Shown: positions 1 to 21,459 of the stretch, piece after piece | Numbering within the stretch: position 1 is the first letter of the stretch | Layout: each line of letters starts with the position of its first letter | Assembly (NCBI GenBank): GCA_002702965.1 | Contig: PADE01000179.1 | Location: forward strand, 1 to 49,657 | Reading direction: 5' to 3' | From: Planctomycetaceae bacterium | GTDB lineage: Bacteria; Planctomycetota; Planctomycetia; Pirellulales; Pirellulaceae | DNA: 49,657 bases | Made by a program: the position numbers and the translations under genes | Notes under the pieces: generated by a model | Databases searched by the model: none | What the model was told of the DNA's origin: nothing | What the model saw: the letters and a program-made list of their open reading frames with translations, nothing else

Positions 1-1787
1 CTCGGCTGGCGTTCGACTTTGATAGAGACCGGCTTGCCGACGTCGTAATCAGGCCGGTCGGTACTCACGACAATCGGCGCGCGCTTTTGTTCCAAGTCGC
101 GCCCGGTCAACCAGCGGACAGTTTGGCTCCAGAAGCGAGAGTACAACGAATCGCTTTGGCCCGCGATCCGCTTCACGCGCGTCCACCTCCATGTCGTGTC
201 GGCGTTAATGACCATCGTCTGTCCCGATCCGTAACGACCGGTCGCAATCACAACTGCGGGTTGATCGTCCATCCGTAAACCGGGGTGAACCGCCAGGATC
301 TCGGCGCCCGCTTTGGCCCGCTGAACGAGGCTCGATCCCAGCAGCGGCGGTGACGTGTGCCACATCGTCTTGTTCTGCACGTGGTCGCTGGCGATGCGAA
401 AGATCGGGTGCAACGCGCCGGCTTCGCTCAATTCCAGTACAAACGGATCTTCGGATTGGCGCACTCCGTCGCCGGCAAAAACGACTGGCAGACAATCGGA
501 CAGGGGCGTACTGATGAAGCCATCCGGACCGAATGAATGATATCCACCCAAGACCAACAGCGAGTGGCTACGATCCTTGTCGGCGCCCGCCTCCTCGTCG
601 CCGATCCCCTGTTCCACCCAACCGATCAGGGTCTGGTATTCGGCTGGGCTCAGATAATCGGCCTCCATGTCGCCGAGGATGACCAGATCGATGTTCTTGA
701 GGACCTCGGGAGTGATCGATACCCGTGGTCCAGTCACCGACGGCCGGTTGGGATTGGTCCGCCGCAGCGCGGTAACCAAGTGAATATCAGGATCGTCGTC
801 CAGGCGCTGGCGGAGAAACTTGTATTCATAGCGCAAGAAGCCTTCGATATAGAGCACGCCGATCGCGTTGGCGTCGACCCGGAGGGGAAAGTGCTTGGAG
901 TTGTTGGCCAGTCCTTTCTCTCCCGACGGGGTAGAAACCCACGCCGTGTAGACGAAATCTCCGGCTTCGTTTGGTTCTAGCTTAATCTGTACGCGTTGTT
1001 GCGTTTGGCCTGCGCCGAGTTCGACCGTAACCGGGTTGGCAGCTTGGTCGACACCACGACGCACCGACACGGTCGCGCTCACGGCGGGACCCGCAGATTT
1101 GCTAACCGTGACCTGCACGTCGGTCTGATTGTTGACCATCACCCGTTGGGGCGCCTGGACGTTGCTCAACTCCAGGTCGAGGCGGGCGGCGTCGGGATCG
1201 CTGCGGAACCCGACCCCGTAAATCGGTACGGAAGACTCTGCCAACTCGACCGTGTCTTCGCGCCCCGTGTTGTCGACGCCATCGCTCACCACGACGACAC
1301 CGACCAGTAGCTGAGATCGCAGTTGGCTGATTACGTTGGTGACAGCGCGCACCAAATCGGTACGTTCCGCACGGGGTTTTTCGGGTAGCGCGTCTCCAAC
1401 CGGTTCACCGGAAATGTCGAACACATCGACTTCCAGCCGCTCGCTGGACTTTCCGTTTTCCATTGTCTGGCGCAACGCGTCGATTCCCTTTTGCGCCTGG
1501 GAATAACGCCCTTCTAGCGACATCGACTCCGAATCGTCGAGGACGACTGCCAGGTGCCCCGGATCGACGAGGTTGTTTTCGGCGGTCCACGTCGGCTTGG
1601 CAAGCGCGACTAGCAGGGCCAACAGCCCCACCGCCCGCAATCCGAGTAACACCCAGGTGAACTTCCGCTGCGTTCGACGGAAGATCTCGCGGTAGGTCCA
1701 AATCATGAACGCCGCGCCAAAGGTCACCATCAGGATCCACAACCAGCCGTTGTGAATGCCCTCGAATTGTAGGGTGGCGAGGATCAT
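1..1787 (-). CDS. Membrane-anchored VWA-like + GATase1-like domain protein, 3' end cut by the window edge (paralog of 10187..12595)
   Basis: Absent from the ORF track because it has no stop in the window. My reverse-complement translation from the ATG at 1785-1787 stays open to base 3: MILATLQFEGIHNGWLWILMVTFGAAFMIWTY... It has two N-terminal TM helices and a MIDAS-like AVVLDDSESM. The blocks GVLYIEGFLRYEYKFLRQRL, TWRWTR and FWSQTVRWL parallel LRVLLIDGFPRWDFRFIKNAI, TWLWRQ and FWGQALRFV in the 802-aa protein. Confidence 0.75.
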   Translation of the reverse strand, partial: MILATLQFEGIHNGWLWILMVTFGAAFMIWTYREIFRRTQRKFTWVLLGLRAVGLLALLVALAKPTWTAENNLVDPGHLAVVLDDSESMSLEGRYSQAQKGIDALRQTMENGKSSERLEVDVFDISGEPVGDALPEKPRAERTDLVRAVTNVISQLRSQLLVGVVVVSDGVDNTGREDTVELAESSVPIYGVGFRSDPDAARLDLELSNVQAPQRVMVNNQTDVQVTVSKSAGPAVSATVSVRRGVDQAANPVTVELGAGQTQQRVQIKLEPNEAGDFVYTAWVSTPSGEKGLANNSKHFPLRVDANAIGVLYIEGFLRYEYKFLRQRLDDDPDIHLVTALRRTNPNRPSVTGPRVSITPEVLKNIDLVILGDMEADYLSPAEYQTLIGWVEQGIGDEEAGADKDRSHSLLVLGGYHSFGPDGFISTPLSDCLPVVFAGDGVRQSEDPFVLELSEAGALHPIFRIASDHVQNKTMWHTSPPLLGSSLVQRAKAGAEILAVHPGLRMDDQPAVVIATGRYGSGQTMVINADTTWRWTRVKRIAGQSDSLYSRFWSQTVRWLTGRDLEQKRAPIVVSTDRPDYDVGKPVSIKVERQP

Positions 1788-1870
1788 CGATTCTCTTGAC
1801 ATCAAAAAGGTATGGACAAGTTGTTTTGAAATCCGTGAGCGAGTTCGTTCTCCCGCGGGCGCGGTTGGTC

Positions 1871-4240: not shown

Positions 4241-4357
4241 GGCCGATCCGAGTGCTGTGTGGCGGTGTCGCCAGGGGTATGTTCAATTCTGAAAAATGCG
4301 GTCCGATTGCTCAGAGAATCACATGGGTGTGCGGTGGCACACTACTTTGTCACGCGG

Positions 4358-5263
4358 TCAGCGGCGAATGTTCTGTCTCTTTGCCAGGTAGGCCCCTAGA
4401 TAGGTGCCGATGTCGAGGTTGGTTTCGGCAATCTCGTAATCGATGTTGGCGGCCCGACAACCACCGCGAACGATCTGCAAAAACCGCTCTAGCTCTTCCA
4501 GATAACTGACTCGAAAGGCGCGGGGATCGGAGGTAATCTCGCGTCCCGTTTCCATGTCTTCGATACGGCTGACGTCGTCGAAGGGGAACGTCAATTCGGC
4601 CGGGTCGAGCGTCTGAAAAACAATGACGTCGTGTTTCTTGTGACGGAAGTGTTTGAGTGCCCCGACGAGTTCGTCGGGGTCGTCAAACAAATCGGAGATG
4701 ACGATGACCAGCGAACGGCGTTTGATCGATTCGGCCAATTCGTGCAGCGTGCTGGCGAGGCGGGTCTCACCACCGGGTGTGTGGGTCTCGAGCAATTCCA
4801 TCATCACCCGCAGTTGGCCCGGTCCCTGGCGGGGTGGGACCGTGCTGCGTACCTGATTGTCAAAAGTAATCAGCCCTACCGCGTCGTGCTGCAGCGCGGT
4901 CATATAGGCCAGGCTGGCCGCCAGATAAGAACCGTATTCGAGCTTGGTGAGCGAGCCATCCGAGCGATATCCCATCGAGGCGGATGTGTCCAGCAGCAGG
5001 TAACACCGCATGCTGGTTTCTTCTTCGTACTGTTTGACATACAGCTTGTCGCGTCGCCCGTAAACCCGCCAGTCGATATGTCGCGGGTCGACACCCGGTG
5101 TGTACTCGCGGTGCTCGGCAAATTCGACAGAGAACCCTTTGTGAGGGCTCTTGTGCATTCCGGAGAAAAACCCCTCGACTACCATCCGTGCAGCGAGCGA
5201 TAGGTTCTTGAGCTTTCCGAGCGCAAGCGGGTCGAGGTACTTGTAACGGGTTGCGGTTGCCAT
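4358..5263 (-). CDS. DUF58 (VWA-like) protein, copy B
   Basis: 301 aa with ATG at 5261-5263. Carries the DUF58 hallmark EFAEHREYTPGVDPRHIDWRVYGRRDKLYVKQYEEE and MIDAS-like LLLDTSASMGY. Sits directly downstream of a MoxR ATPase. Confidence 0.9.
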   Translation of the reverse strand: MATATRYKYLDPLALGKLKNLSLAARMVVEGFFSGMHKSPHKGFSVEFAEHREYTPGVDPRHIDWRVYGRRDKLYVKQYEEETSMRCYLLLDTSASMGYRSDGSLTKLEYGSYLAASLAYMTALQHDAVGLITFDNQVRSTVPPRQGPGQLRVMMELLETHTPGGETRLASTLHELAESIKRRSLVIVISDLFDDPDELVGALKHFRHKKHDVIVFQTLDPAELTFPFDDVSRIEDMETGREITSDPRAFRVSYLEELERFLQIVRGGCRAANIDYEIAETNLDIGTYLGAYLAKRQNIRR

Positions 5264-5358
5264 GGAATGTCACTGCCCAGTGAATGAGAAACACGAGGGA
5301 GAGCCGCTTCCAGCTGTCCTCCGAAACGGCGAGGGGCTGGCGCTGACGAACCGATTGC

Positions 5359-6414
5359 TCAGGCGTAACTCTCCTCAGTCGGCGGCTTAACATGGTCAAG
5401 CAGGTACTGCACAATTTGGTCGGGAGAGATCCCTTCGGCTTCGGCGTGAAAATTAGCGACGATCCGGTGGCGTAGCACCATCGGCGCCACCGCGCGGACA
5501 TGCTCGCTGGTCACACGGTAGTCCCCGTTGATTGCCGCCCGAGCCTTGGCGCCGATCACCAAGAATTGGACCGCCCGCGTTCCGGCACCCCAGTTGACGT
5601 TTTCTTTAACGTAACTGGACGCGTCTTCATCTTCGGGTCGCGTGGCACGAGCCAGATCGACCGCGTAATTCCCGACGTGGTCGCTGATTGGCAGACGCCG
5701 CACGATTTGTTGGAGTTCCATGATCTCGGTGCCGGTAAGGACCGAACTCAAATCGACGGTGACATCGGCCGTGGTGGCTTTGGCGATCTGCAACTCCTCT
5801 TCGGGCTTGGGATAGCTGATCCGAATGTCGAACATAAAACGGTCGAGCTGAGCTTCGGGAAGCGGATAGGTACCCTCTTGTTCAATTGGGTTTTGAGTCG
5901 CCAGCACGAAAAAGGGTTGCGGCAATGGATAAGTTTGTCCGCCCACAGTGACCTCGTTCTCCTGCATGGCTTGCAACAGCGCGGCCTGGGTCTTGGGTGG
6001 TGTACGGTTGATCTCGTCCGCCAACAAAATGTTGGCGAATACGGGACCTTTGACAAATCGAAACTCGCGTTTTCCTGTCGATTTGTCTTCTTCGATGATA
6101 TCGGTTCCCGTGATGTCCGAAGGCATCAGGTCCGGGGTGAACTGAATTCGGTTGAAGTCCAATTCGATGGCTTGCGCGATCGTGCTGACCATGAGCGTCT
6201 TGGCAAGTCCGGGAACGCCAATCATCAGGCAGTGTCCCCGCGAAAAGATCGCCGTCAGCAGGTCATCGACGACGTGCTCCTGCCCAATAATGACCTTGGC
6301 GATTTCGTTCTTGAGCTTGCTGCAACTGGCGCCCAGTTTCTGGATCGCGGCCGTGTCGTTTTCGTTGGTTTGCGCGGACTGCATGAGTGGATTGCCAGGG
6401 CTGTCAGTAGACAT
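5359..6414 (-). CDS. MoxR-family AAA+ ATPase, copy B
   Basis: Walker A GVPGLAKT, Walker [24 protein letters not shown], sensor region [24 protein letters not shown] prefer the internal ATG at 6412-6414 (MSTDSPGNP...), which is preceded by GAGGAG, over the track start at 6516. Confidence 0.9.
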   Translation of the reverse strand: MSTDSPGNPLMQSAQTNENDTAAIQKLGASCSKLKNEIAKVIIGQEHVVDDLLTAIFSRGHCLMIGVPGLAKTLMVSTIAQAIELDFNRIQFTPDLMPSDITGTDIIEEDKSTGKREFRFVKGPVFANILLADEINRTPPKTQAALLQAMQENEVTVGGQTYPLPQPFFVLATQNPIEQEGTYPLPEAQLDRFMFDIRISYPKPEEELQIAKATTADVTVDLSSVLTGTEIMELQQIVRRLPISDHVGNYAVDLARATRPEDEDASSYVKENVNWGAGTRAVQFLVIGAKARAAINGDYRVTSEHVRAVAPMVLRHRIVANFHAEAEGISPDQIVQYLLDHVKPPTEESYA

Positions 6415-6564
6415 ACAGAGACTCCTCAATGTTCGCTGAACACGCTTCCAAGCGGTGCGAGGTGTTTGGGGAGAACTCCCCCGGTTCCCGCTTGGGCGGG
6501 TGCTGGTTTGCCACACGCGCCATGATGGCCTTGAACCGTGTCAAGGCCGCCAGCCACCGTTGTT

Positions 6565-6592
6565 GAAAACGATGGCGCTGCCGACGGCGCCA
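6565..6592 (-). terminator. Candidate terminator-like hairpin after the DUF4159 gene
   Basis: On the minus strand, TGGCGC (6592-6587) pairs with GCGCCA (6578-6573) around an 8-nt loop, followed by TCGTTTTC. It starts 28 nt after the stop at 6620-6622. The stem is short and there are only four T, so support is weak. Confidence 0.35.
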
Positions 6593-6619
6593 GTCGAACA
6601 GCCCCCCGAGAAATAAGAA

Positions 6620-8155
6620 TCAGTGTTGCAGCGCGTAGGCCACAACATTCACGGACAATTGTCGGCATGATTCGGCATCAAAGCCGTTGCCAAATGGATC
6701 ACTGACCTGCTTCAGATGCGTCAACATATCATTCTTGGAGTAGACGACCACTAACCGGTCACCGACTGAAATTCCCTCCAGGTCGACCGACCGCGGTGCG
6801 CCACTGCGACGGTCGCGTACGGCTTCGATCTGGAAGAACGATCGATAGAGGTCATGGTCTTGCGGAATCGCGCCCAACTTCTGGTCGGGGAAGAGCTCGC
6901 CCAGCAGAGCGCGGATGTGCTGGTCAAATTCGCGGTACCCGGAACAGTTGTTGATGAACAGGAAACCACCCGCCGCGATGTGTCTCTGCAGTGCCTGTTT
7001 TTGATCTGCGTTAAAACGGGGATTTCGGAACCCGGTCATGAACAGGAACGGGTGATCGGCGATCTTGGGTGCGACTGCATCGACGTATTTCAATTGAAAA
7101 CCGACCGACAGACTGGAGTCCTGAGAGAGGTGGCGAAGCCACTGAAACGTGCTGTTGGGATCCGGATTCCAGTCGCCTTGATGTCGTAACTGCGCAAGTG
7201 AGAAGGCTTGACGCGCGCGATCCGTGGGCGCCGCAACCTGACGCGTGACCGCCTCCACCGCGCCGACTTCGCGCAGCGCTGCCACATAGCTGACGATATT
7301 GAGGCCAAAGCGGATTGCATCGCCGGGGATCAACGCCTTGTCACGGGGGGCGTCGGCGACGCGTTGTTTGGAGGAGGGTGCAATAAACTCATCCCACCCG
7401 CAACTCATGTCGTGGGGAGAGAGGATCACCGCGGTGCGGGTCCCAATGTTCATTCCAAGCAACTCAGGGGGGCCCTGTGTCTGGAAATCGATCCCCTGGT
7501 CGACATCGAAGTAGTGGATGTTCGTGTACGCTCGGTAGGCGCGGAAAATGGGGTGATCGACCTGCAGAAGGTCGAGTGCTCGGTCGGGGAACATCTTGCG
7601 GATTTCTGTACGAAAAGAACTGGTGAAAGCCGGACTCCCGAGGGTCGCATCGCCCAACAGGGTGCCCCCATCGAGCAGATATTGACGCAGCGTGTCGCGC
7701 TGTTCATCGCTCAGTGCAAAAGGCTGGTACCCGGTCAAGTAGAGCATTGGCAATTTCGACGTCTTACCCTGGCGATGGCCGGCGACGAGTTCTTGTAGGT
7801 CGAGGACTTTCCAGCCGTACCACAACCCCAACTCGTAACGGGCGTGACGCATCAAGTTATCCACATCACCCGGATTGGGCATGTAGTCCTGATCTTTGCC
7901 GTAGATCAGCTTGGCCATGAACAGTGGCGGCGCAGGCTCTGCTTTTGGTTCGCTGCGGCGCAGCGGTGTCACCGGCAGTGGCAGCGGTGGAAAGCCCTCG
8001 GCCGACGTTTGCCGTTGAGGATTTTTTCGCGGAGGTGGACCGATGGTACCGACGCGGCGCTGACCGTACAGGGTCGCCGGGGCAACGGTAAAGAACGTCA
8101 ACAGCAGGGTAGTTAAAAGGCGTGCGAAGGCGATTCGGCGTTTCGGGCGGGTCAT
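6620..8155 (-). CDS. Secreted/anchored protein with two tandem DUF4159 (GATase1-like) domains
   Basis: N-terminal signal/anchor RLLTTLLLTFFTVAPATLYG. Two DUF4159-like cores: LPMLYLTGYQPFALSDEQRDTLRQYLLDGGTLLGD and HPFLFMTGFRNPRFNADQKQALQRHIAAGGFLFINNCSG. The track start at 8158 is GTG. The adjacent ATG at 8153-8155 has better spacing from GGAGG. Confidence 0.75.
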   Translation of the reverse strand: MTRPKRRIAFARLLTTLLLTFFTVAPATLYGQRRVGTIGPPPRKNPQRQTSAEGFPPLPLPVTPLRRSEPKAEPAPPLFMAKLIYGKDQDYMPNPGDVDNLMRHARYELGLWYGWKVLDLQELVAGHRQGKTSKLPMLYLTGYQPFALSDEQRDTLRQYLLDGGTLLGDATLGSPAFTSSFRTEIRKMFPDRALDLLQVDHPIFRAYRAYTNIHYFDVDQGIDFQTQGPPELLGMNIGTRTAVILSPHDMSCGWDEFIAPSSKQRVADAPRDKALIPGDAIRFGLNIVSYVAALREVGAVEAVTRQVAAPTDRARQAFSLAQLRHQGDWNPDPNSTFQWLRHLSQDSSLSVGFQLKYVDAVAPKIADHPFLFMTGFRNPRFNADQKQALQRHIAAGGFLFINNCSGYREFDQHIRALLGELFPDQKLGAIPQDHDLYRSFFQIEAVRDRRSGAPRSVDLEGISVGDRLVVVYSKNDMLTHLKQVSDPFGNGFDAESCRQLSVNVVAYALQH

Positions 8156-8185
8156 CACGAGATCCTCCGTTGAACGAGATCTGTG

Positions 8186-9010: not shown

Positions 9011-9014
9011 CCGA

Positions 9015-12595: not shown

Positions 12596-12643
12596 CGACG
12601 TTCCGTTCTTGTACGGCCGATCTCGCGGCGGCGCGGGCGATGA

Positions 12644-15600
12644 CTACTTTTTAGGTGCTTGGACTTTGGAGAGTTTGCGGAAATACTCCCGGACAAATTC
12701 GCGGTAGCCCTCTGGACCACCCTTCTTGAGGCTCTGTAGCAAGTCCTCGCGCTGGCGTTTTTGCATCCCGATGATCACCGTCCGGGTTCTCACATCGAAA
12801 GCCCCCAGCTCCTCGACGATGGCGTCGACGACCGCCGTGGCGTTTGTCGATTCGCTGAGCTGATTTGTTGAAGGCGGCGGTGGCGGCGCTGGCTGGGGCT
12901 GCTGACCATCAGGGGGTGGCGTTTGCGATTGCCCAGATTGGCTGAGCATCTGCTGCAGGCGTTGGAGCATCGAGCGGGCCGACTGCATGTCCTGAGACTG
13001 CATCATCTGTTCGAGCTGGTTCATCTGGCTGGGCGTGAGAGGTTGGTTGGCCAGGTTCTCTAATTGCTCGAGCATCTGATCGAGCGTATCCTTGTCGGCG
13101 CCCAGTGCCCGTTGCGCCTGGTCGAGTTCCTCGACGCGGCCGAACTGACGAGAACGCATTTGCTGCCGTTCTTCCTCGCCTTCGCCATTCTTCTCCGCTT
13201 GCATCATCTGTTCTTTCAGGTCGCGAAGCTTTTCCGCAAACCGCGGATCCATCTTGGGAACCGGGCCCCCCAGCGCGGGAAGGAATAGCTCCGGCTCCTC
13301 TTCGAATTCCTCGGCGTCCTCCTCACCCTCCTGTTCGGGCTGGTCCTCGTTCTTTTCGCCGTCTTCCGGTTCCGCCGCCGTATCCAGTTCTTTGGGCGGT
13401 ACCAAGTATGAATCGCGCTCGGGGTCATAAGGGCGTCCCGGGAAACGGGGTGGTTGCCGCATCGAGCGCAGCTGCTCGAGTAGATCGCGGACGTCCGCCA
13501 ATTCGTCTTCCGATTCAGAGTCGAGCTGCTCCTGCTCCTCCTTGATGGCATCGAAGCCGCGCTCGGAGAGGTCCTTGGTGGCGTCTTCGAGCAGCTCCTC
13601 TTGGTTGCCTTGCAAGGCTTCCAGATCGGCGCGTTTGGCTTCCAGGAAGTCGCGCAACTCGGACAGATCCGAGGCGGTCAGCTGGGCATCCTGCTGCATC
13701 AGGTCACTGCGCAGATCGGAGAGTGCCGTGTCAACGTCCAGGCGGCTTTCCGCTTGCGCGTCGGCGAGCGATTCCAGTCGCTTCTGTAGGTCGTCCAGGT
13801 TTTTCTGTAACTGTTCACTTTGGCGCTCGATGTTCTCCAGTTGGGGATCCGTCTGTTGTGGCTGCGCGGCGGCCTGGGCCTGGTTGGCCAATTGTTGCAT
13901 TGGCTCAACCGCCAGGTTCTGAAAAGCCTCCTGCATGGCCGCCAGTTGACGGGTAATTTCCGGCGGCAGAAACGCCTGGGTATTGGCTTGTTCGGACAAC
14001 TGCTTAAGGTCGTTTGCGACCTGTTGCCCGAGCTCGACATTCTTCGTTTCATCCGCCGCCAACTGGGTGAGCTCGCCGCGTAACGCTTCGTGCTCCTTGG
14101 TGGCTTCCTCGTCCAACTCCAGCGGAGCTGGCTTGGCCTGTGGATCGGCCGGATCGACCTTTTCCTGCGCCTCGGCCGCGGCGGCTTCGAGTTTCTCGGT
14201 CAACGGTTGGTACTTCTCGACCAACTGGCTGCTCGTTTCGCGGATCTTCTCCTGCTCGGCGATCAGCTTGATGAGCTTCTCGCGAAACGTGTCGGTCTGC
14301 TGTTCGTACTGTTGGAACGTCTTGTCCGCGGCCTGGCTCTCGTCGGCTAGGCGAATGGTGAAATCGCGGGAGGTGGCACTCTGAGGTTTGCCGTCCCGAA
14401 CGACGACTCGATATTTGAGGCTTTGGCCGACCGCGAGTTCCTCTTCGGCCAAGTCCAGGGTAACCACCCGGGTGACCGACCGCGGGGGCTGGTCGAAGCG
14501 CTGGACGAGACGTCCTTGGAAGGGCTCCTCCTCCCCTTTTTGAACCGCCAATTCGATTTGGTCGATGCCGTAATCATCGCTGGCGCGAAGGTGAATGTTC
14601 ACTTTGACCGGGGCGCTGACGACGAGGTCCATCCCCGGCCGTTCGATATCGACCCACGGAGACTGGTCGATGATCGCCTCCAGCTTGCCCTCTTCCATCT
14701 GCTGGTTCTTGTCACCCGCCTGGTTGTACAGTTCAACGCGGTAGAAACCGTCTTTGAGCAAAGAAAACTCACCCGCCCAGCGACTGCGCTGTTCGGCAGA
14801 CGGCTCGCTCGGCAGCGGGTCACTGCCCGATCCCTGTGCGCTGGCACCGCTGGCACCGCGATCCGATCGGTCGCCCAGAGAGTCGGCGTCCGCGGCAAGC
14901 TGCTTGACGAGGAAGCGATCGGTCGGAGTCAGCACTCGCACCATGCGGGCGGTCGGCGGCAGGGTTCCGGTGGCGCCCCAGATACAATGGCCTCCGACCA
15001 GTCGAAAACGCATTCCCTGAAGACGTTTCCCGGTCAATCCGACCAGGTCGGTGGGAATCTCCAGTTGGACCACACGGCCCGCTTCGGGGAGCTTGCCGAA
15101 CGACCGCCGACTGGGAGACCCCAGGGTTCCCTCCGCGATTTTGTCAGCGCCCCAGAAGGCGCGATGTTCCCAGTTTTCACCGTCGTGCCACTCGAGCATG
15201 ATCTGTTCTGGGACCTGACCGGCGATCAGCCGTACGTTGACGAACAGGACTTCGTCGGGTTGGACGAGATACCCCACGGGGACGCCGGTGAACCCGTGTG
15301 CGTGGGGCCCCGCGGCCGGTGCGTCAAAATGACCCTTGTGACCCATCGCCTTGTCATCCCATTGCCAGGTTCCCTCGACGGTCGCGCCCTCCGGCAACGC
15401 ATCGGAGAACCAGATTCGCTCGGGTCGATCCGTGACCGCCACACGCGTCAGGCGTGGTTCGAGCAGGACGATTTCCCCCCCCGCCGTGTCCCCTTCGACA
15501 TCGACGATGATCTTGACCTTGCTCCCCTTGGGGCCGGTCACGTCCTTGGTTTGGGGGGCGCCCAGTCGGGGCTCTGTGATTTTCATGTACTCGGGATAAG

Positions 15601-16618
15601 AGAGTTCCGTCTGGAGGTTCACGATCCGCGGCCGTTCGAGCATCGTGACCTGATATTGGGGCGTCCAGGTTTGGCCACCGCGGACGCGGTAGCGAAAGTC
15701 GCGTTGCATACCGACCAGTGAGAAGCTGGTCTGATCGACGGTTGCCAGCTGATCTCCTTCGCCCGAGGTTTCGACCTTAATGAGCGCCGGAAAATCATGC
15801 ACAAGCTTCTTCGGAGCGCCGTCTTCGTCGGTGGTTTCGACCTCCAGCGTCAGCGCGTCCCTCTCCAGCAGTGCCGAGTCACTCCCCTTGGTTACGGTGA
15901 CAGTGAAGTGGACGTTTTCGCCACGCAGCTTCTGATCGTTCCCCGGCTCCTGCTTCTCACCAGTGACCACTTGGTAGCCGACACCGGAGTTGGGCGGAAT
16001 GTCACGGTAGAAATAGACGATGCGGGCTACGGCGGTCGAGAGGCGATCGGAAAACACGACGAACGCCAAGATCAATGCAACGCTGGCGACCGCAGCGAAA
16101 ATTGCGGATCTCCGCAGACTGAGCAGGTCGAGTACTTTGCGCGGACTAAAGTCAGCAATCCGCTTAAGCGCCTCGTCGACCAATCGGACGTGAAACGCCT
16201 GCGAGTGCAGACCCTTCCGACTGTCTCCATTACGGGACAGATCGATACAACTGACCAAGCGGTTGTGGATCCCGGGAATTTCGCGTTCGATGTGGCGGGC
16301 CACAATCACTTCAGTCAAGCGGCGAAACAAGGGGCGTATCACTCCCAGATAGCAGACCCAGACCGTCGGGATCACGACGCACAAAAAGCCCGTCAGACGC
16401 AACCACGAGGGGAGGGTGTAGACCACCAGGTCGGTGAGCGTGACCACAACCAACGTCGCCAGCAGCAACCCCACGGTGACGCCCACACCGGTTGCCAGCC
16501 AGGTTGTCTTGAGCAACACCCGGGTGTGTTGAATCAGCTGCGTAATCTTCGAGGTATCAGGCGGGCCCGAAGGGTCCGGTGATTGGTCCGAAGGTGTGTT
16601 TGCAGATAAGCCAGCCAT
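12644..16618 (-). CDS. Giant DUF4175-like membrane protein: N-terminal TM hairpin, beta-rich middle, about 560-aa acidic/Gln-rich coiled-coil tail
   Basis: 1324 aa with ATG at 16616-16618. TM pair LATGVGVTVGLLLATLVVVTL and LRLTGFLCVVIPTVWVCYLGV, followed by ARHIEREIPGIHNRLVSCIDL. The C-terminal 563 aa (12647..14335) are heptad-like and E/D/Q-rich with a PAPPPPPS stretch, ending GPEGYREFVREYFRKLSK. The DUF4175/TIGR02302 resemblance is recalled from memory, not searched. Confidence 0.75.
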   Translation of the reverse strand: MAGLSANTPSDQSPDPSGPPDTSKITQLIQHTRVLLKTTWLATGVGVTVGLLLATLVVVTLTDLVVYTLPSWLRLTGFLCVVIPTVWVCYLGVIRPLFRRLTEVIVARHIEREIPGIHNRLVSCIDLSRNGDSRKGLHSQAFHVRLVDEALKRIADFSPRKVLDLLSLRRSAIFAAVASVALILAFVVFSDRLSTAVARIVYFYRDIPPNSGVGYQVVTGEKQEPGNDQKLRGENVHFTVTVTKGSDSALLERDALTLEVETTDEDGAPKKLVHDFPALIKVETSGEGDQLATVDQTSFSLVGMQRDFRYRVRGGQTWTPQYQVTMLERPRIVNLQTELSYPEYMKITEPRLGAPQTKDVTGPKGSKVKIIVDVEGDTAGGEIVLLEPRLTRVAVTDRPERIWFSDALPEGATVEGTWQWDDKAMGHKGHFDAPAAGPHAHGFTGVPVGYLVQPDEVLFVNVRLIAGQVPEQIMLEWHDGENWEHRAFWGADKIAEGTLGSPSRRSFGKLPEAGRVVQLEIPTDLVGLTGKRLQGMRFRLVGGHCIWGATGTLPPTARMVRVLTPTDRFLVKQLAADADSLGDRSDRGASGASAQGSGSDPLPSEPSAEQRSRWAGEFSLLKDGFYRVELYNQAGDKNQQMEEGKLEAIIDQSPWVDIERPGMDLVVSAPVKVNIHLRASDDYGIDQIELAVQKGEEEPFQGRLVQRFDQPPRSVTRVVTLDLAEEELAVGQSLKYRVVVRDGKPQSATSRDFTIRLADESQAADKTFQQYEQQTDTFREKLIKLIAEQEKIRETSSQLVEKYQPLTEKLEAAAAEAQEKVDPADPQAKPAPLELDEEATKEHEALRGELTQLAADETKNVELGQQVANDLKQLSEQANTQAFLPPEITRQLAAMQEAFQNLAVEPMQQLANQAQAAAQPQQTDPQLENIERQSEQLQKNLDDLQKRLESLADAQAESRLDVDTALSDLRSDLMQQDAQLTASDLSELRDFLEAKRADLEALQGNQEELLEDATKDLSERGFDAIKEEQEQLDSESEDELADVRDLLEQLRSMRQPPRFPGRPYDPERDSYLVPPKELDTAAEPEDGEKNEDQPEQEGEEDAEEFEEEPELFLPALGGPVPKMDPRFAEKLRDLKEQMMQAEKNGEGEEERQQMRSRQFGRVEELDQAQRALGADKDTLDQMLEQLENLANQPLTPSQMNQLEQMMQSQDMQSARSMLQRLQQMLSQSGQSQTPPPDGQQPQPAPPPPPSTNQLSESTNATAVVDAIVEELGAFDVRTRTVIIGMQKRQREDLLQSLKKGGPEGYREFVREYFRKLSKVQAPKK

Positions 16619-16766
16619 GGTTCTGCTCTCTCCCAGGGTCTACCCTGTTTCGCCACGAGGACTTGGTGTTGGTCGCCCGCTCCCATGCGGTGGCCGGTGG
16701 CGCCCGTCAGAGACGTGTCACGCGCTGCGCGCCGACCAATCAAGCTTCCTTTATCTATGCAGTGCT

Positions 16767-16795
16767 ATTTGACAAGCGTACCCGGCGCGTGTCAA
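16767..16795 (-). promoter_or_regulatory. Candidate sigma70-type promoter for the DUF4175-like gene
   Basis: The minus strand reads TTGACA (16795-16790), 17 nt, then TCAAAT (16772-16767), about 140 nt upstream of the ATG at 16618 and inside the 282-nt spacer. The same region forms the inverted repeat TTGACA-N15-TGTCAA (16769..16795). Confidence 0.3.
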
Positions 16796-16900
16796 CAAAA
16801 TCTCGAGTTGACGGCCCCCGAACGGCCTCCAGATCCGCGTTTCCCCTTTTCCTGGCTTAACAAATCCACAGCTGGGGCAACGGTTCCGCTGGCCATTGAT

Positions 16901-19273
16901 CTATTCGCGTACCTCGGCGGCCACTTCCTCGACACCCGCCCCAGTCATCCGCCCGACCCATCGTCCGCTGGCTAGGTTTCGAATCCGCGCCGCCGTGGTG
17001 GGTGTTTCTTCGCTATCCACGTGCTGGCCCCCCAGCGTCGAGAGCAGGAATTCGACGCCAATGATTCCCAGCAGCAGCAGAATCAGCGGCCGCCAGACTT
17101 CTCGCTGGTTGCCGATACTACCGTAGTCCTGTTGGGCTTGGGCCGAGGCGTCGATCGAAGTGACGTTGGCAGACGGGAGTCGGTCTTGGATCTGATTGGT
17201 GTTCAGGGTGTCAAAATCGGACTCGTCGGCAGCCACGTTCACGGCGAACGAGACCGATCCCTGTTTGGGATTCTCGGTCCGACCCCCGGTCACCTCGACC
17301 GTGTAGTAGCCCGTGTTTGTGGTCTCGTGAAAAGCACCTTTGAGTTGTGAGTTGGAGCGCTGAAAACCGACGGGTGTGACACGTCCACGAATGTCGGTCA
17401 CCTTACCATTGGCGGGTGCCCAAGTTGGGGACACGGTAAATTCGGCGGTTCCGCCGGCCGAGACAACCGAGGGGCTCTCCAAGTCATCGGGGCGCCGGAC
17501 GTGGCTGATCATTCGCAGCACCAGCGGAACGAACTCGGGCGTCATCGGCAGATTGCTCCACCGCGTGTTCAGTGGGAAGGCGCTGACCAGCACGCGGCCG
17601 GTACCGAAGCGACTCTCCAATAGTGCCGGTGAACCGTCGGCAAATTCAACCGTCGGCCAGGCGTTGCCGTCCTCCTCCGCGAGCGTCAACGGGAAGCGGC
17701 GGTAGACGTTGACCTGGGTCAGATAGGGCTGATCGGCGTTGGCAAACACGGAGAATACCGGGTGCGCCAGATCGATGGCGCCCAGCCGCTGGAACGTCTC
17801 GGCTTTGTCGGGGTCTCCCACGGCGGCCCCCAATTGGGCGGACAAGAGCTTCGATTCGGGAAGGGTGGGGCCAACGAATAACTGCGTGTTGTAGGTCTCT
17901 GGATTGACCTTGTCGCCCGGAAAGACCAACAGTCCTCCCCCCTCGTCGACGAAAGTACTAAGCAGCGTGAACTGCGCCGCGTTGAGTGCACCGCAGTTTG
18001 CCAGGATGACGGCGGCGGTATCCCGCAACGTTTCGGCGTTCAGATTTGCCTCGGGCAAATCGACCACGTCCAGCGATTGCAACAGTTCCTGCTGTGCGCT
18101 GACAGCCACATCGGGTACGACCGCCGCTCCCGTCTCGTCCGCTTCGGGGGCGTCGCTCTGGACGACCGTCGAGAACATGGCCGTGCGCAGATACAGGCCT
18201 TCGTTCTCCAGAGGTTGTGCCGACGGGTTGCCATTGACCAATAGCACCTTGACCCTCGGGACGACTTCCATCGTGAACCGAAAACGATCGTCGTGGGTAA
18301 ACCGATCCGCGGAAATCTCAAATCGGCCACGCAACGGGCCCGGCTCGGTCGGTCGGTAGATAATCTCCGTCTCCTTGGTTTCACCCGGCTTCAGGCTCAG
18401 CGTTTTGCGCGCGATCTCCTTTTCATTCAGGAGGACCACCACCTCGACGTTTTCTGGTGCCGCGCCGTTCTCGGCGTTCGGTTTGGAATGATTGACGACG
18501 CGCGGTCGCAGGTGCACCGGCAGCCCAACCAGGACGCGCGGTTTTTCTGGTTTGGTGCCGATCACCGCGCGATTGGGAATCGTCTGATTGGAGCCGATAT
18601 TGACGACGACCACTTCGGTCTCGGCGGGTAGCAGGCTGTCCGCCGCGCCGTCTTTGAGCTCTTTCCAGTCGCTGCCTTGCAGATCGGTCAACAGAAAAAC
18701 GCGGGGGTTGTTCAACGATCGCGAGCCCTCGCCGAACACCTGGGTCAGCGCAGCGAACAGGTTTCCGCGCGAAGACCCCGATTCGAGTTGTTCGATTTCA
18801 GATTGGATGACCTTGGCGTCGGAGGTGAACCGGCTACAGATTTCCTCCGGCCGGGCCCCCACACGGATGATCGTGACCCGGTCGTCACTCGCCAGTTCCT
18901 CGACGATCTTGAGCGCCGCCTGTCGCGCCCGCGCCATCGACGTCACACCGTCGGTGACGGCGGACATGCTGGCCGAACCATCGACTAACAGAACGATGTC
19001 ACGTCCGCCGCCGCCCCCCAGCAGTGCGTCCCAGTGCCGTACCACGGGGCGCGCTACGCTGAAGATCAGAAACAGCAAGAAAGCCGTACGCAGCATCGCG
19101 ATCAGCGCTTCCAGGAATTTCATCCGCCGCCGTTGTTGGACGTAACTGTCAAACAGAAAACGGAAGGTACTTAGATCCACCGTTTTCACGCGGTGCAGCG
19201 TCAGCAGATGCAGGACGACCGGGATCAGCGCTAGTGGCAAAACCCACAGCAGCCCGGAGTTTAGAAAACTCAT
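16901..19273 (-). CDS. BatA_N + VWA domain protein with C-terminal TM anchor, copy A
   Basis: 790 aa with ATG at 19271-19273. N-terminus MSFLNSGLLWVLPLALIPVVLHLLTLHRVKTVDLSTFRFL, MIDAS IVLLVDGSASM, C-terminal TM PLILLLLGIIGVEFLL. Confidence 0.85.
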   Translation of the reverse strand: MSFLNSGLLWVLPLALIPVVLHLLTLHRVKTVDLSTFRFLFDSYVQQRRRMKFLEALIAMLRTAFLLFLIFSVARPVVRHWDALLGGGGGRDIVLLVDGSASMSAVTDGVTSMARARQAALKIVEELASDDRVTIIRVGARPEEICSRFTSDAKVIQSEIEQLESGSSRGNLFAALTQVFGEGSRSLNNPRVFLLTDLQGSDWKELKDGAADSLLPAETEVVVVNIGSNQTIPNRAVIGTKPEKPRVLVGLPVHLRPRVVNHSKPNAENGAAPENVEVVVLLNEKEIARKTLSLKPGETKETEIIYRPTEPGPLRGRFEISADRFTHDDRFRFTMEVVPRVKVLLVNGNPSAQPLENEGLYLRTAMFSTVVQSDAPEADETGAAVVPDVAVSAQQELLQSLDVVDLPEANLNAETLRDTAAVILANCGALNAAQFTLLSTFVDEGGGLLVFPGDKVNPETYNTQLFVGPTLPESKLLSAQLGAAVGDPDKAETFQRLGAIDLAHPVFSVFANADQPYLTQVNVYRRFPLTLAEEDGNAWPTVEFADGSPALLESRFGTGRVLVSAFPLNTRWSNLPMTPEFVPLVLRMISHVRRPDDLESPSVVSAGGTAEFTVSPTWAPANGKVTDIRGRVTPVGFQRSNSQLKGAFHETTNTGYYTVEVTGGRTENPKQGSVSFAVNVAADESDFDTLNTNQIQDRLPSANVTSIDASAQAQQDYGSIGNQREVWRPLILLLLGIIGVEFLLSTLGGQHVDSEETPTTAARIRNLASGRWVGRMTGAGVEEVAAEVRE

Positions 19274-19352
19274 AGGCCCGTTTCTCTTGTCAAAAAGTGA
19301 GGCTCCGCGGGTCGGCTGGCGGGAGGAACTCCCCGCAGGCCGTGACGCACCA

Positions 19353-20243
19353 TCATCCTATGCGCGAGCGTTTGTCGAGGTAGGCGGACAGGAACTTATC
19401 GTAAGGTTCGGTTGTGTTTACCAGGTTGTAGTCGACTTTGCGTTCCAGGCAGTCCCCGCGCACACGGTCTAGAAAATCACGAATCCGTGCCAGGTATCGC
19501 TTACGGAGGTTCTTGGGATTGGTGACGACACGTCCGGCCCCCTCCATGTCCTTGAATCGCGTCAGACGGTCGTAGGGAAAGGTCAACTCGGCGTCGTCCA
19601 TCACGTGGAACACCAGGACCTCGTGTTGGCTGTGACGGAAGCGCTGCAGCCCCTCAGCGATCTCCGCTTCGTTGTCGATCATGTCACTGATCAGGATGAT
19701 CAGCCCGCGCCGCTTGGTCCGCTCGGCCGCTTGCGCGAGGATCGCGCCGATGTTGGTCTCCCCACCCGGCTGCAGGCCTTCCAGCATCTCGAGCACGCGG
19801 CGAAACTGGGATGGGTGGGCACGGGGCGGAATGTAGCCGCGGATGTCCGAGTCGAACAACAGTGTGCCGACGGCGTCGTTCTGACGAATCAGCAGATAGC
19901 TCAACGACGCGGCCAGGAAGGCGCCGTAGTCGAGCTTGCTCATTTCACCGCTCTTGAAGCCCATCGAGTCCGAGCAGTCCAACAGAATGTAAGCTCGCAG
20001 ATTGGTTTCGTCCTCAAACAGCTTGACATAGTACTTGTCGCTGCGGGCCAACATCTTCCAGTCCAGGCCCCGCAAGTCGTCCCCCGGTGTGTAGGCGCGG
20101 TGATCCAGGTACTCCACCGAGAATCCATGGTAGGGGCTGCGGTGGCGTCCGGTCAGGAAACCGTCCACCACCTGCCGCGCAACCAATTCCATATTTCCCA
20201 GGCGCGCGAGTCCGACCGGGTCCAGAAAACGTGTAGAAGCCAT
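19353..20243 (-). CDS. DUF58 (VWA-like) protein, copy A
   Basis: 296 aa with ATG at 20241-20243. Motifs EYLDHRAYTPGDDLRGLDWKMLARSDKYYVKLFEDE and ILLDCSDSMGF. Confidence 0.9.
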   Translation of the reverse strand: MASTRFLDPVGLARLGNMELVARQVVDGFLTGRHRSPYHGFSVEYLDHRAYTPGDDLRGLDWKMLARSDKYYVKLFEDETNLRAYILLDCSDSMGFKSGEMSKLDYGAFLAASLSYLLIRQNDAVGTLLFDSDIRGYIPPRAHPSQFRRVLEMLEGLQPGGETNIGAILAQAAERTKRRGLIILISDMIDNEAEIAEGLQRFRHSQHEVLVFHVMDDAELTFPYDRLTRFKDMEGAGRVVTNPKNLRKRYLARIRDFLDRVRGDCLERKVDYNLVNTTEPYDKFLSAYLDKRSRIG

Positions 20244-20326
20244 GACAGTGCAATCGTGAAATGAAGAATCCGTTAGACTTCAAAGTCGCACCCCACCGCG
20301 GCCGGCGGCCCGGTGTACGGCCGGCC

Positions 20327-21361
20327 TTACTCTTCGCTGGTCACATCCAACAACCTCTCCACGATGTTGTCGGTGGAAACCCCATCGCTTTCCGCGGCGA
20401 AGCTGGTAACCAGGCGGTGGCGCAGTACCGGGTAACTAATGTAGCGGATGTCCTCGGTGGAGACGTTGACACGGCCGTCCAACAGCGCGTGCGCTTTGGC
20501 CCCCAGCAGAATGGCCTGACAGGCTCTCGGCCCGGCACCCCAGGTCAGATACTTCTTCACAAAGTCGGGGGCCTCTTCTGAATTGGGGCGCGTGGCACGT
20601 ACCAGCCGCACCGCAAACGCCGAAATCGAACGGCCGATCAACACTTTGCGAACGACTCTCTGCAGCAGCAGAATGTCGTCTCGGTCGAGGATCGATTTGA
20701 GTTCGGGGAGACCGTCGGCGGTCGTGATTTCCGCGATCTTGAGTTCCTCTTCAAAGTTCGGGTAGTCGACTTGAATCCGGAACATGAAACGATCGAGTTG
20801 CGCTTCCGGCAGCGGGTACGTTCCCTCCTGCTCGATCGGATTCTGTGTGCCCAATACCAGGAAAGGCTCGTCGAGTGGGTAATCCTTGCCCGCCGTGGTG
20901 ACTTTGTACTCCTGCATCGCTTGCAGCAGCGCAGCTTGTGTCTTCGGCGGTGTGCGGTTGATTTCATCGCCGAGCAGGATGTTGCCGAAAATCGGCCCCT
21001 TCACGAATCGCATCCGCCGCCGTCCCGTCCCCTCTTCCTCCTCGAGGATCTCGGTACCCGTAATGTCGGAGGGCATCAGGTCGGGGGTGAACTGCACCCG
21101 GCTAAATTCGAGCGACAGCAGATCCGCAATGCTGGAGATCATCAAGGTCTTGGCCAGACCGGGAACTCCTTCCAGCAGACAGTGGCCGCGACAAAAGAGG
21201 GACAGCAGAACCTGCTTCAAAACCTCATCCTGACCCACGATGACCTTGGACAATTCACCCGTCAGCTGACCGTAGACCTGAGACAGGTTTTCGGCCATCT
21301 TGAGGTCTTGATCATCCAACGTCTGCCCTTGCAATGCGCCTTGTGTAATGCTCGATGACAT
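20327..21361 (-). CDS. MoxR-family AAA+ ATPase, copy A
   Basis: Walker A GVPGLAKT, Walker [24 protein letters not shown], then [24 protein letters not shown] prefer the internal ATG at 21359-21361 (MSSSITQG...), which follows a purine-rich GGAAGGAATGGAAG, over the track start at 21463. Confidence 0.9.
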
Positions 21362-21431
21362 AACCGTCTTCCATTCCTTCCCATATTTTCCGGGCCAAAT
21401 CCATCGGACAATGTAGATTCGTGTTGCACGC

Positions 21432-21459
21432 AACTTAGCGGTATTTATTCGCGCGTCAA
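21432..21459 (-). promoter_or_regulatory. Candidate promoter of the MoxR array
   Basis: The minus strand reads TTGACG (21459-21454), 16 nt, then TAAGTT (21437-21432). A T7 tract (21481-21487) lies where an UP element would sit. The predicted leader to the ATG at 21361 is about 64 nt. The -10 match is weak. Confidence 0.25.

Follow-up and report, generated by a model that had tools for sequence, protein, structure and literature searches.

Among bacterial gene clusters still without a biochemical function, MoxR-DUF58-BatA operons rank with the most widespread. RL3499-RL3502 of Rhizobium leguminosarum, the 'broadly conserved operon' of Vanderlinde 2011, is reportedly the studied example of a single-module type. 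In that species RL3499, a MoxR protein of the MRP subfamily, is needed for membrane integrity and cell morphology, as one account states (PMC3893208, citing Vanderlinde 2011), and RL3499 mutants are impaired on peptide-rich medium and show a growth defect in transposon sequencing. The BatA-type protein BB0173 has been shown experimentally to be an inner-membrane protein whose VWA domain is periplasmic (PMC5700661). In NorQ-NorD, the VWA domain reaches into the pore of the MoxR hexamer with a finger-like extension, and a linker is remodelled through the ATPase's activity (PMC13036017). Here we describe an array of related genes in a stretch of 49,657 nucleotides (nt) from a Planctomycetaceae bacterium (contig PADE01000179.1, assembly GCA_002702965.1), hereafter the window. 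The array is best read as a duplicated, planctomycete-specific elaboration of a MoxR-DUF58-BatA-DUF4175/DUF4159 envelope system. Shown here are the genes present, their paralogy and conserved linkage, the invariant motifs and a predicted topology; every functional statement is drawn from homology, topology prediction and linkage.

Twelve co-directional open reading frames (ORFs) on the minus strand fill the window from 21361 to its left edge (position 1). An earlier sequence-only reading, made without database searches, had listed these genes with their gaps, one TAATG overlap and two long spacers, and our ORF map bears out all of them. The intergenic distances from g1 to g12 are 83, 79, 282, 48, -1, 4, 27, 205, 95, 117 and 83 nt; the sole overlap is the minus-strand TAATG at 10185-10189, where the g5 stop overlaps the g6 start. 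Families were called by Pfam and NCBIfam hidden Markov model (HMM) searches, and motifs and hydropathy were read from the translations. The genes, with the names used below and lengths in amino acids (aa), are:

20327..21361, minus strand: g1 (M1), MoxR-class AAA+ ATPase, 344 aa, AAA_3 201.9 bits; opens module A
19353..20243, minus strand: g2 (D2), DUF58 protein, 296 aa, DUF58 163.7 bits plus VWA_2; candidate cytoplasmic VWA adaptor
16901..19273, minus strand: g3 (B3), BatA-type protein, 790 aa, matching BatA, TIGR02226 two_anch and VWA_2; two N-terminal transmembrane (TM) helices, VWA domain, C-terminal TM helix
12644..16618, minus strand: g4 (C4), 1324 aa, three TM helices, large predicted periplasmic beta-sandwich region and acidic coiled-coil/low-complexity region
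10187..12595, minus strand: g5 (G5), second BatA-type paralogue, 802 aa; two N-terminal TM helices, VWA-like domain with a MIDAS (adhesion site dependent on a metal ion), GATase1-like and immunoglobulin (Ig)/filamin-like domains, C-terminal TM helix
9015..10187, minus strand: g6 (cyc6), alpha/alpha-toroid protein, 390 aa, predicted periplasmic with a signal-anchor; terpenoid-cyclase-like
8186..9010, minus strand: g7 (orf7), secreted protein of a conserved family, 274 aa, N-terminal hydrophobic signal
6620..8158, minus strand: g8, tandem-DUF4159 protein, predicted periplasmic; 512 aa from the GTG at 8158 or 511 aa from the ATG at 8155
5359..6414, minus strand: g9 (M9), MoxR-class AAA+ ATPase, 351 aa, AAA_3 216.5 bits; opens module B
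4358..5263, minus strand: g10 (D10), DUF58 protein, 301 aa, DUF58 168.4 bits
1871..4240, minus strand: g11 (B11), BatA-type protein, 789 aa, matching BatA, two_anch and VWA_2; two TM helices, VWA domain, weak GATase1-like region, C-terminal TM helix
1..1787, minus strand: g12 (G12), BatA-type VWA/GATase1-like protein, N-terminal 595 of 751 aa, cut by the window edge

The twelve genes had been taken as the whole array, which in fact crosses the left window edge and comprises at least 14-15 genes. On contigs 99.8% identical to the window, the full 751-aa g12 is followed by a 1100-aa paralogue of g4 (C13) and then by a 736-aa PKD protein. The complete layout is [M1-D2-B3-C4-G5] - [cyc6-orf7-g8] - [M9-D10-B11-G12-C13] - [PA14-PKD-TPR protein, often then a ~280-aa protein]. 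Each of the two modules thus contains a MoxR protein, a DUF58 protein, two VWA proteins of BatA type, the second of them GATase1-like, and a membrane protein of DUF4175 type; over the whole array that makes two ATPases, six VWA proteins (four BatA-type, two DUF58) and two C-type proteins.

The two halves are paralogous, as expected of an expanded and duplicated relative of MoxR-DUF58-BatA operons. In all-against-all BLAST, g1 and g9 are 56% identical, g2 and g10 47%, g3 and g11 27%, and g5 and g12 23-25%; C4 and C13 share about 22-27%, so that g4 is not the single-copy gene for which it had been taken. Counterpart M1 orthologues are 71-74% identical to one another, compared with 56% for the M1/M9 paralogues, and both modules occur in loci labelled Phycisphaerae. 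The module duplication is therefore older than the split of the sampled classes.

The order of the genes is conserved across the phylum. A scan of one genome per species with an alignment of g8 homologues yielded 64 loci, onto which all proteins were mapped by tblastn; taxon labels are those given by the submitters of the metagenome-assembled genomes (MAGs). The order B3-C4-G5-cyc6-orf7-g8-M9-D10-B11-G12-C13 recurs in essentially every locus long enough to judge, in MAGs labelled Pirellulales, Planctomycetaceae, Gemmataceae (Gemmatales), Isosphaeraceae (Isosphaerales) and Phycisphaerae. Neighbour pairs from C4 to C13 are adjacent in 88-98% of assessable loci (C4-G5 37/39, G5-cyc6 44/46, cyc6-orf7 46/50, orf7-g8 53/56, g8-M9 42/43, M9-D10 39/41, D10-B11 36/38, B11-G12 34/35, G12-C13 27/29). 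The lower count for B3-C4, 10 of 15, is most probably no real loss, B3 sitting where the 10-kb flank ends. M1-D2-B3 lie upstream on two long contigs, from a 9.3-Mb genome (L068) and an Isosphaeraceae genome (L069), and since the genes before M1 differ between the two, M1 marks the conserved start of the array. At the other end, a metagenome scan with the C13 alignment found a secreted PA14-PKD-TPR protein directly after C13 in at least 18 loci, often followed by a gene for a protein of ~280 aa. It is this conserved synteny, not strand statistics, that places the array beyond chance. C4, the cyclase-like gene, orf7 and the tandem-DUF4159 gene are syntenic with MoxR, DUF58 and BatA in nearly every assessable related locus; a lack of such synteny in other genomes was named by the sequence-only reading as something that would refute it.

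Several loci depart from the common pattern. Two are permuted and remain contiguous: one (L092) runs cyc6-orf7-g8-module B and, after a gap of ~1.1 kb, M1-D2, and the other (L085) has module B and the PKD gene first, in the order B11-G12-C13-F0-F1-D2-B3-C4, with no MoxR gene before D2. In the 9.3-Mb genome a 208-aa gene without a Pfam match lies between M9 and D10 (L068, 20799-21425), and gaps of 0.6-1.4 kb separate these two genes in several other loci. In one marine lineage (L013, L024, L057) cyc6 is tandemly duplicated. MAGs labelled 'Lentisphaeria' (L007, L008, L009) carry g8-to-C13 genes 57-78% identical to the window's proteins, as close as MAGs labelled Pirellulaceae, and likely represent mislabelling or misbinning instead of a true Lentisphaerae array. 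The 81-kb plasmid pPL62-3 of Planctomyces sp. SH-PL62 (L129, 1-14852) carries a further, paralogous MoxR-DUF58-BatA-VWA module, in which the DUF58 gene appears split into two ORFs and which is followed by hypothetical and NPCBM/NEW2 proteins. The plasmid collection also gave one Corynebacterium DUF4159 match.

Outside the phylum, the closest relatives are operons with DUF4175 and DUF4159 components, found for instance in Gemmatimonadota, and not, as had been suggested, the Bacteroides Bat operon. A Gemmatimonadota operon reads GATase1_like (771 aa) - 336 aa - TPR/Peptidase_MA_2 - DUF4159 (256 aa) - MoxR - DUF58 - BatA/VWA - DUF4175, and an Omnitrophota contig carries tandem-DUF4159 - M - D - B - G - C. 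In these Gemmatimonadota and Omnitrophota loci, G, DUF4159, M, D and B were picked up by HMMs of the planctomycete families, and cyc6, orf7 and the ~280-aa protein were not. Judged by these comparisons, the six-family module is older than the Planctomycetota, and the planctomycete elaborations are the second M-D-B-C block, an insert in C4 and the g8 proline-rich leader, together with cyc6, orf7 and the PA14-PKD-TPR protein.

Three noncoding regions accompany the genes of the array:

16619..16900, minus strand: g3-g4 spacer, 282 nt, containing TTGACA-like hexamers
6415..6619, minus strand: g8-g9 spacer between the g8 block and module B, 205 nt, with a terminator-like hairpin at 6573-6592 and a TTGACA-like (-35-like) hexamer
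21362..21535, minus strand: region upstream of g1, 174 nt, AT-richer (47% GC), common to a divergent MetE-like gene

The last of these is likely the promoter region of the array. In the g3-g4 spacer a consensus promoter scan listed no minus-strand promoter and Rfam gave no match; the corresponding gap in orthologous arrays ranges from 58 nt (L069) to 344 nt (L068). Only 36 nt separate g8 from g9 in L068, and 99 nt in L069, so the 205-nt spacer marks no conserved boundary. Scans for consensus promoters and terminators did not rise above chance, with as many terminator-like hairpins as chance predicts, and operon boundaries therefore cannot be called from sequence.

We consider it very probable that the array is one functional system, and lean, with less assurance, towards a MoxR-serviced envelope complex. 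A number of observations weigh against this. The 205-nt spacer, with its terminator-like hairpin and -35-like hexamer, allows that the modules are transcribed separately in this genome; g8 stands alone in L014, L016 and L017, so the cluster is broken in some lineages; and single-module systems evidently work alone in other phyla. A module-like run in Planctopirus limnophila, Plim_1801-1807, whose orthology to the array is unmapped, is listed as non-essential in rich medium in the accessible material of an essential-gene study (PMC10632474). The scans used exact peptide patterns, which limited taxon coverage and left Brocadiia uncovered, and TM helices and topology come from a simple hydropathy script and not from a trained predictor.

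Some of the same facts would be expected if two or three independent Bat-like systems with different clients stood side by side, module A with g6-g8 being one unit and module B with the PKD gene another, and their adjacency being left over from tandem duplication. In Gemmatimonadota and Omnitrophota one module suffices by itself, planctomycetes carry many further modules (the one on pPL62-3, for example, and the eight AAA_3 paralogues of P. limnophila), the spacer has its hairpin and promoter-like hexamer, and g8 can become detached. We nevertheless regard this arrangement as unlikely. The junction between the proposed units, g8-M9, is intact in all but one of the 43 assessable loci, across classes whose orthologues are just 50-60% identical, and it spans only 36-99 nt in other genomes; the hairpin belongs to a class no commoner here than chance allows. 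Both rearranged loci (L085, L092) keep the two modules together, and the lack of a MoxR gene before D2 in L085 suggests that one ATPase can serve both halves.

The components of the supposed single system are consistent with a division between cytoplasm and periplasm. Almost every family named in the sequence-only reading was recovered by Pfam or NCBIfam, the exceptions being g4, a direct match for g5, and g7; the two MoxR, two DUF58, two BatA_N-plus-VWA and tandem-DUF4159 proteins all score above cut-off. The AAA_3 scores of g1 and g9 (201.9 and 216.5 bits, cut-off 27), together with AAA_lid_2 (60 and 58 bits) and the Walker motifs, assign both to the MoxR MRP (AAA_3) subfamily. Both have Walker A as GVPGLAKT, and their Walker B reads ILLGDEINR (g1) or ILLADEINR (g9); the two motifs are invariant across 47 M9 orthologues. 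The closest structure to g9 is PDB 2R44 (E 1e-83). Both g2 and g10, encoded right after a MoxR gene, belong to DUF58 (PF01882; 163.7 and 168.4 bits, cut-off 23.4) and have MIDAS motifs, DCSDS at g2:89 and DTSAS at g10:92, with D/S/S invariant in 42 D10 sequences. No homologue of solved structure was found for DUF58. The hydropathy script detected no TM segment or signal peptide in the MoxR and DUF58 proteins, and both ATPases and both DUF58 proteins are therefore predicted to be cytoplasmic.

The B and G proteins appear to be anchored in the cytoplasmic membrane. BatA_N and TIGR02226 match g3 with 40.6 (BatA) and 50.1 bits (two_anch) and g11 with 55.2 and 63.8 bits; the BatA score of g12, 20.4 bits, is below the cut-off of 23, and g5 has no direct match. 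Two VWA plus GATase1-like proteins had been proposed, and GATase1_like does match g12 (36.2 bits) and, more weakly, g11 (20 bits), which is evidence at the level of fold; g5 has no direct VWA or GATase1 match in Pfam, only a weak Filamin match, and is tied to g12 by hhalign (E 2e-83 between the families). The G5 and G12 families also align with the g11 family (E 4e-21 and 4e-29) from TM2 through the VWA and GATase1-like domains, over ~500 columns, and by these alignments the G proteins are divergent members of the BatA-type B family. Their MIDAS motifs, DGSAS (g3:98), DQSQS (g5:101), DNSAS (g11:99) and DDSES (g12:84), complete the six DxSxS motifs that had been read from the sequence, all of which, like the Walker motifs, lie where they were placed. 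D/S/S are invariant in 33-45 orthologues of D10, B11, G5 and G12 (45 sequences for G5, 35 for B11); the distal MIDAS residues (Thr, Asp) were judged by eye only, and B3 may lack the Thr.

TM helices were placed at residues 8-26, 56-74 and 730-748 of B3 and 3-21, 56-74 and 710-728 of B11. The TM1-TM2 loops of the B and G proteins are rich in lysine and arginine (K/R), with 5-10 K/R in 13-34 residues (7 in 29 for B3), and under the positive-inside rule the B/G VWA domains and the arms of the C proteins (>1000 aa each) are predicted to be periplasmic. This topology agrees with the BB0173 experiments, and we infer that the VWA/MIDAS domains of B and G face the periplasm. The membrane and periplasm placement proposed by the sequence-only reading thus fits hydropathy, the positive-inside rule and the BB0173 topology (PMC5700661).

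The largest protein, g4, had been called DUF4175-like. Direct assignment of g4 and C13 to this family by Pfam or NCBIfam failed: g4 matches no family in either, including DUF4175 (PF13779) at E<=0.01, and PF13779 was found neither among 120 listed g4 homologues nor, at E<=5, in 16 C13 orthologues. The link runs only through Gemmatimonadota intermediates and hhalign. A Gemmatirosa (Gemmatimonadota) locus from the plasmid collection encodes, after MoxR-DUF58-BatA, a 1268-aa protein that scores 26.0 bits with PF13779 against a cut-off of 27.3, and nearly all of its listed homologues carry PF13779 or are named 'DUF4175 family protein'. Against a reference of 15 Gemmatimonadota proteins, most with PF13779 or that name, C4 aligns over 532 columns (probability 99.9, E 4e-37) and C13 over 1023 columns (probability 100, E 1e-63). 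C4 and C13 both have three N-terminal TM helices and stand after MoxR-DUF58-BatA, which agrees with the architecture and operon position of the DUF4175 proteins. By profile comparison, then, C4 and C13 are divergent DUF4175-family homologues beyond the reach of the Pfam model, though not Pfam members. Two parts of C4 deserve separate mention:

16109..16345, minus strand: C4 TM2-TM3 loop, residues 92-170, predicted cytoplasmic; candidate MoxR/DUF58 docking site
14909..15463, minus strand: C4-specific insert, residues ~386-570 (~180 aa), one copy of a ~160-aa beta-sandwich repeat

The TM helices of C4 lie at residues 41-59, 73-91 and 171-189. Its TM2-TM3 loop has 16 K/R in 79 residues, compared with none in the 13 residues between TM1 and TM2; it aligns with the counterpart loop in C13 and the DUF4175 proteins, and its invariant residues include P96, R100, E111, H118, N119, R120 and D126. 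In C13 the loop is rich in both charges, with 12 K/R and 14 aspartate or glutamate residues in 73. In the AlphaFold 2 (AF2) model, C4 residues 190-620 are all-beta, a string of beta-sandwiches with a predicted local distance difference test score (pLDDT) of 90. Foldseek with the periplasmic model returned only generic matches, to beta-sandwich, carbohydrate-binding module, adhesin and surface glycan-binding protein (SGBP)-like folds at TM-scores <=0.24 (query-normalised), from which we draw no specific function. Residues 761-1270 (510 residues) are rich in E, Q, L and A, with a net charge of -64.

The insert is a gap in the alignment of C4 to DUF4175 and is lacking in C13 and the DUF4175 proteins; its invariant residues include H430, H441, W483, E484, H485 and W489. 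The ~160-aa repeat of which it is one copy occurs in 1861 representative proteins of 299-4617 aa, with up to nine tandem copies each, and no Pfam or NCBIfam model matches it. Among ten carriers scanned, one has Big_7/Big_13 Ig domains and another a GH9 cellulase. The repeat looks like an undescribed family of extracytoplasmic binding modules. AdvA, an essential division protein of Acinetobacter baumannii, is reported to have an N-terminal DUF4175 match and two TM helices (PMC7481262), which may hint at the role of the membrane module in DUF4175-type proteins.

Between the modules, cyc6, orf7 and g8 each begin with a signal or anchor sequence, and the only TPR is at the C-terminus of the PA14-PKD protein downstream of module B. 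A terpenoid-cyclase fold had been proposed for g6, and the fold stands: SQHop_cyclase_C (38.4 bits) and SQHop_cyclase_N (37.7 bits) are above cut-off, which speaks for the repeat and fold, and squalene-hopene cyclase repeats in PDB match with E 1e-11. As a squalene-hopene or oxidosqualene cyclase it falls far short, scoring 43 bits with TIGR01787 and 35 bits with TIGR01507 against cut-offs of 322 and 431; its 390 aa suffice for a single toroid only, and the sequence reads SDQDLSV where DxDD is expected. It is probably not a cyclase. The secreted orphan of the sequence-only reading, g7, does have a secretion signal and no match in Pfam, NCBIfam or PDB profiles, but is no lineage orphan, since orf7 is found in at least 47 loci. 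Alignment of 40 orthologues gives a conserved block, GNIQHAA...RT.PF...PGE.IWR.ELWHFERPEETW. A lipoprotein assignment was ruled out, the cysteine not being conserved.

In g8, DUF4159 (PF13709) occurs twice (200 bits, a family member by score), and the protein is 56-91% identical across planctomycete classes. Its AF2 model has two GATase1-like alpha/beta domains (pLDDT 83). In PDB it comes closest to 4I66, whose function is unknown (sequence profile E 3e-19; Foldseek E 4e-12, TM-score 0.79, target-normalised); weak Foldseek matches to GATase and ThuA-like proteins are fold-level evidence only. A twin-arginine (Tat) signal was ruled out, as the RR pair is not conserved. Ahead of the two domains lies the leader:

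7925..8059, minus strand: g8 proline-rich segment, residues ~34-78, near-invariant, predicted disordered

Its motif, …GPPPRKNPQRQTSAEG.PPLPLP.TPLRRSEPKAEPAPP…, is near-invariant across 43 orthologues, and G37, T38, G40, P42, P43, R49, E54, P58, P62, R67, R68, S69, E70, K72, E74, P75 and P78 are invariant in all 43, while the AF2 model has a pLDDT below 50 at residues 25-72. The segment is not covered in the Omnitrophota homologue and, on present sequences, appears specific to the Planctomycetota.

These features suggest how a MoxR-serviced envelope complex might work. By analogy with NorQ-NorD and RavA-ViaA, each cytoplasmic MoxR hexamer would grip cytoplasmic loops or tails of membrane subunits through its DUF58 VWA partner. 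Contact could be made through the parts that, as predicted, alone reach the cytoplasm: in the DUF4175-type protein the conserved TM2-TM3 loop, and in the B and G proteins the BatA_N loops together with the C-terminal tails. ATP hydrolysis would then assemble, remodel or switch a periplasmic VWA/MIDAS lattice. The four membrane-tethered MIDAS sites may bind acidic ligands, candidates being the acidic coiled coil of C4/C13 and the RRSEPKAEP-containing peptide of g8, and the C4 beta-sandwich repeat, the alpha/alpha toroid and the PA14-PKD protein might contact polymers of the wall or outer envelope. The outcome would be an energy-serviced tether or scaffold, reaching from the cytoplasmic membrane to the outer layers and keeping the envelope intact. 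A physical complex, the direction of force, the ligands and the physiological role are all proposed here by analogy, and the specific docking and ligand assignments are doubtful individually.

If MoxR and DUF58 instead matured a specific enzyme by inserting a cofactor or metal, as NorQD, CoxDEF and CbbQO do, the other subunits would be accessory. All characterised MoxR-VWA pairs do act on defined enzyme clients (PMC13036017; PMC3893208), the MIDAS sites are intact and invariant, and the C4 insert has invariant histidines. However, no candidate client enzyme lies in or beside the array in the window or in related loci, where flanking genes vary; of the six VWA domains, four are predicted to lie in the periplasm on membrane tethers, beyond the reach of a cytoplasmic ATPase; and the histidine-rich insert is a mobile repeat of Ig-rich and GH9 proteins rather than of metalloenzyme contexts. 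We judge an insertion chaperone distinctly improbable.

About as improbable is a Bat-type function in aerotolerance or oxidative stress, as proposed for Bacteroides, Porphyromonas, Riemerella and Borrelia. MoxR, DUF58 and BatA_N-plus-VWA families are common to both, R. anatipestifer moxR and batA mutants have stress phenotypes (PMC11834572), and bb0173 is oxygen-regulated (PMC5700661). Yet no array protein has a Pfam match to BatD or SH3, and the BatB-type model NF047506 VWA_BatB_Lepto reaches 22.8 bits against a cut-off of 350, the components that define a BatI operon thus being missing or below cut-off; the array's nearest relatives carry DUF4175 and DUF4159, and the Bat proteins themselves have no experimentally demonstrated specific function according to the abstract of a Leptospira study (PMC3557215). 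Weak bpMoxR matches on both ATPases (27.7 and 38 bits) and the occurrence of MoxR-VWA modules in conflict systems (eLife 2020) might have pointed to a ternary MoxR-VWA system acting against phage or in other conflicts. That idea is effectively refuted by the absence of PADLOC hits for ten proteins, AAA_3 scores far above those of bpMoxR, and a fixed order, high phylum-wide conservation and lack of mobile-element neighbours that are the opposite of defence-island behaviour and resemble a housekeeping system.

The remainder of the window, 21.5-49.6 kb, holds unrelated housekeeping genes. Divergent from g1 is the MetE-like gene (21536-22753, Meth_synt_2 match); further genes encode an RlmKL-type methyltransferase, an MMPL/RND-type membrane protein, an AhpC/TSA-domain protein, an ABC-2 permease, an FGE-sulfatase-family protein, a WD40 protein, GroEL, an IlvD/Edd-family dehydratase and a cytochrome c protein. 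In one 672-aa ORF (30042-32060, minus strand) the AhpC/TSA (redoxin) domain is confined to residues ~40-165, and the other ~500 aa have no match at E<=1e-5. Rfam RNA families and tRNA genes were looked for in the window and none was found.

Among MoxR-DUF58-BatA operons the array is the most elaborate and most strictly conserved form, with at least 13 genes in fixed order across planctomycete classes, periplasmic subunits 50-60% identical between classes, six invariant MIDAS sites and two ATPases. Such conservation argues for a core envelope function in a phylum with unexplained envelope organisation and FtsZ-less division. [quoted passage not shown] A bolder extension of the envelope-complex reading, to which we give only a small chance, is that the array with its planctomycete-only additions forms a machine from the cytoplasmic membrane to the outer envelope that underlies a distinctive trait of the Planctomycetota. 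Candidate traits would be the way in which the enlarged or invaginated periplasm is organised, and division or budding without FtsZ, and the two MoxR motors might then drive 'inside-out' switching of the four periplasmic MIDAS sites; the N-terminal DUF4175 match of AdvA (PMC7481262) is a thin lead towards a division-related machine. For experiment, the analysis supplies a defined list of subunits, a probable docking site for the motors in the conserved cytoplasmic loop, and a probable ligand in the invariant disordered peptide. It also ties Pfam-unannotated planctomycete proteins to DUF4175 and brings to light a large beta-sandwich repeat family outside Pfam and NCBIfam.

A full-text literature search found no description of the array, with DUF4159 appearing only in a Pfam database paper, and the P. 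limnophila essential-gene paper (PMC10632474) does not discuss it. The component families and the single-module operon were already known, whereas the double-module, fixed-order, phylum-widespread array with its additions appears to be undescribed. Of the systems to which it can be compared, the operon of MoxR, VWA protein and YebA-like transglutaminase (TGL) described by Zhang and Aravind (2012) is alike in placing MoxR and VWA proteins at the membrane on a multi-TM partner. Zhang and Aravind (2012) predicted that three-gene operon to serve degradation close to the membrane; unlike it, the twelve array proteins have no transglutaminase or peptidase domain detected by Pfam. NorQ-NorD, RavA-ViaA, CbbQ-CbbO and CoxD-CoxE share with the array an AAA+ MoxR protein encoded beside a soluble VWA/MIDAS protein, and the coupling of a MoxR hexamer to its target by a VWA adaptor, as in NorQ-NorD, is likely the working principle here too. 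In those pairs the clients are known; here the MoxR proteins are of the MRP (AAA_3) and not the CGN or RavA subfamily, the adaptor is a DUF58 protein, no client enzyme is evident, and membrane proteins encoded within the operon itself are the presumed targets.

The BatI operon of Bacteroides fragilis and the spirochaete bat loci (Leptospira; Borrelia bb0170-bb0176) are alike in having MoxR first, DUF58, and inner-membrane BatA_N proteins with VWA/MIDAS domains. They also have TPR-containing secreted partners, represented here by the C-terminal TPR of the PKD protein. They differ in that the array has DUF4175-type, DUF4159, alpha/alpha-toroid and orf7 components in place of BatB, BatD and SH3, and BatA-type proteins of ~790 aa with GATase1-like and Ig domains, where BB0173 has ~330 aa. 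Closest are the single-module operons, exemplified by two Gemmatimonadota loci (L130, L128), which have the same six families in the same co-directional context; RL3499-RL3502, by the domain content of RL3501 and RL3502, presumably belongs with them. Compared with these operons, the planctomycete array has a doubled M-D-B-C block and four BatA-type proteins in place of two, a tandem DUF4159 protein with an invariant proline-rich leader, and an extra repeat domain in C4; the Gemmatimonadota TPR/Peptidase_MA_2 gene is absent, and cyc6, orf7, the PA14-PKD-TPR gene and the ~280-aa gene, none of them found in the outgroup loci, have been added.

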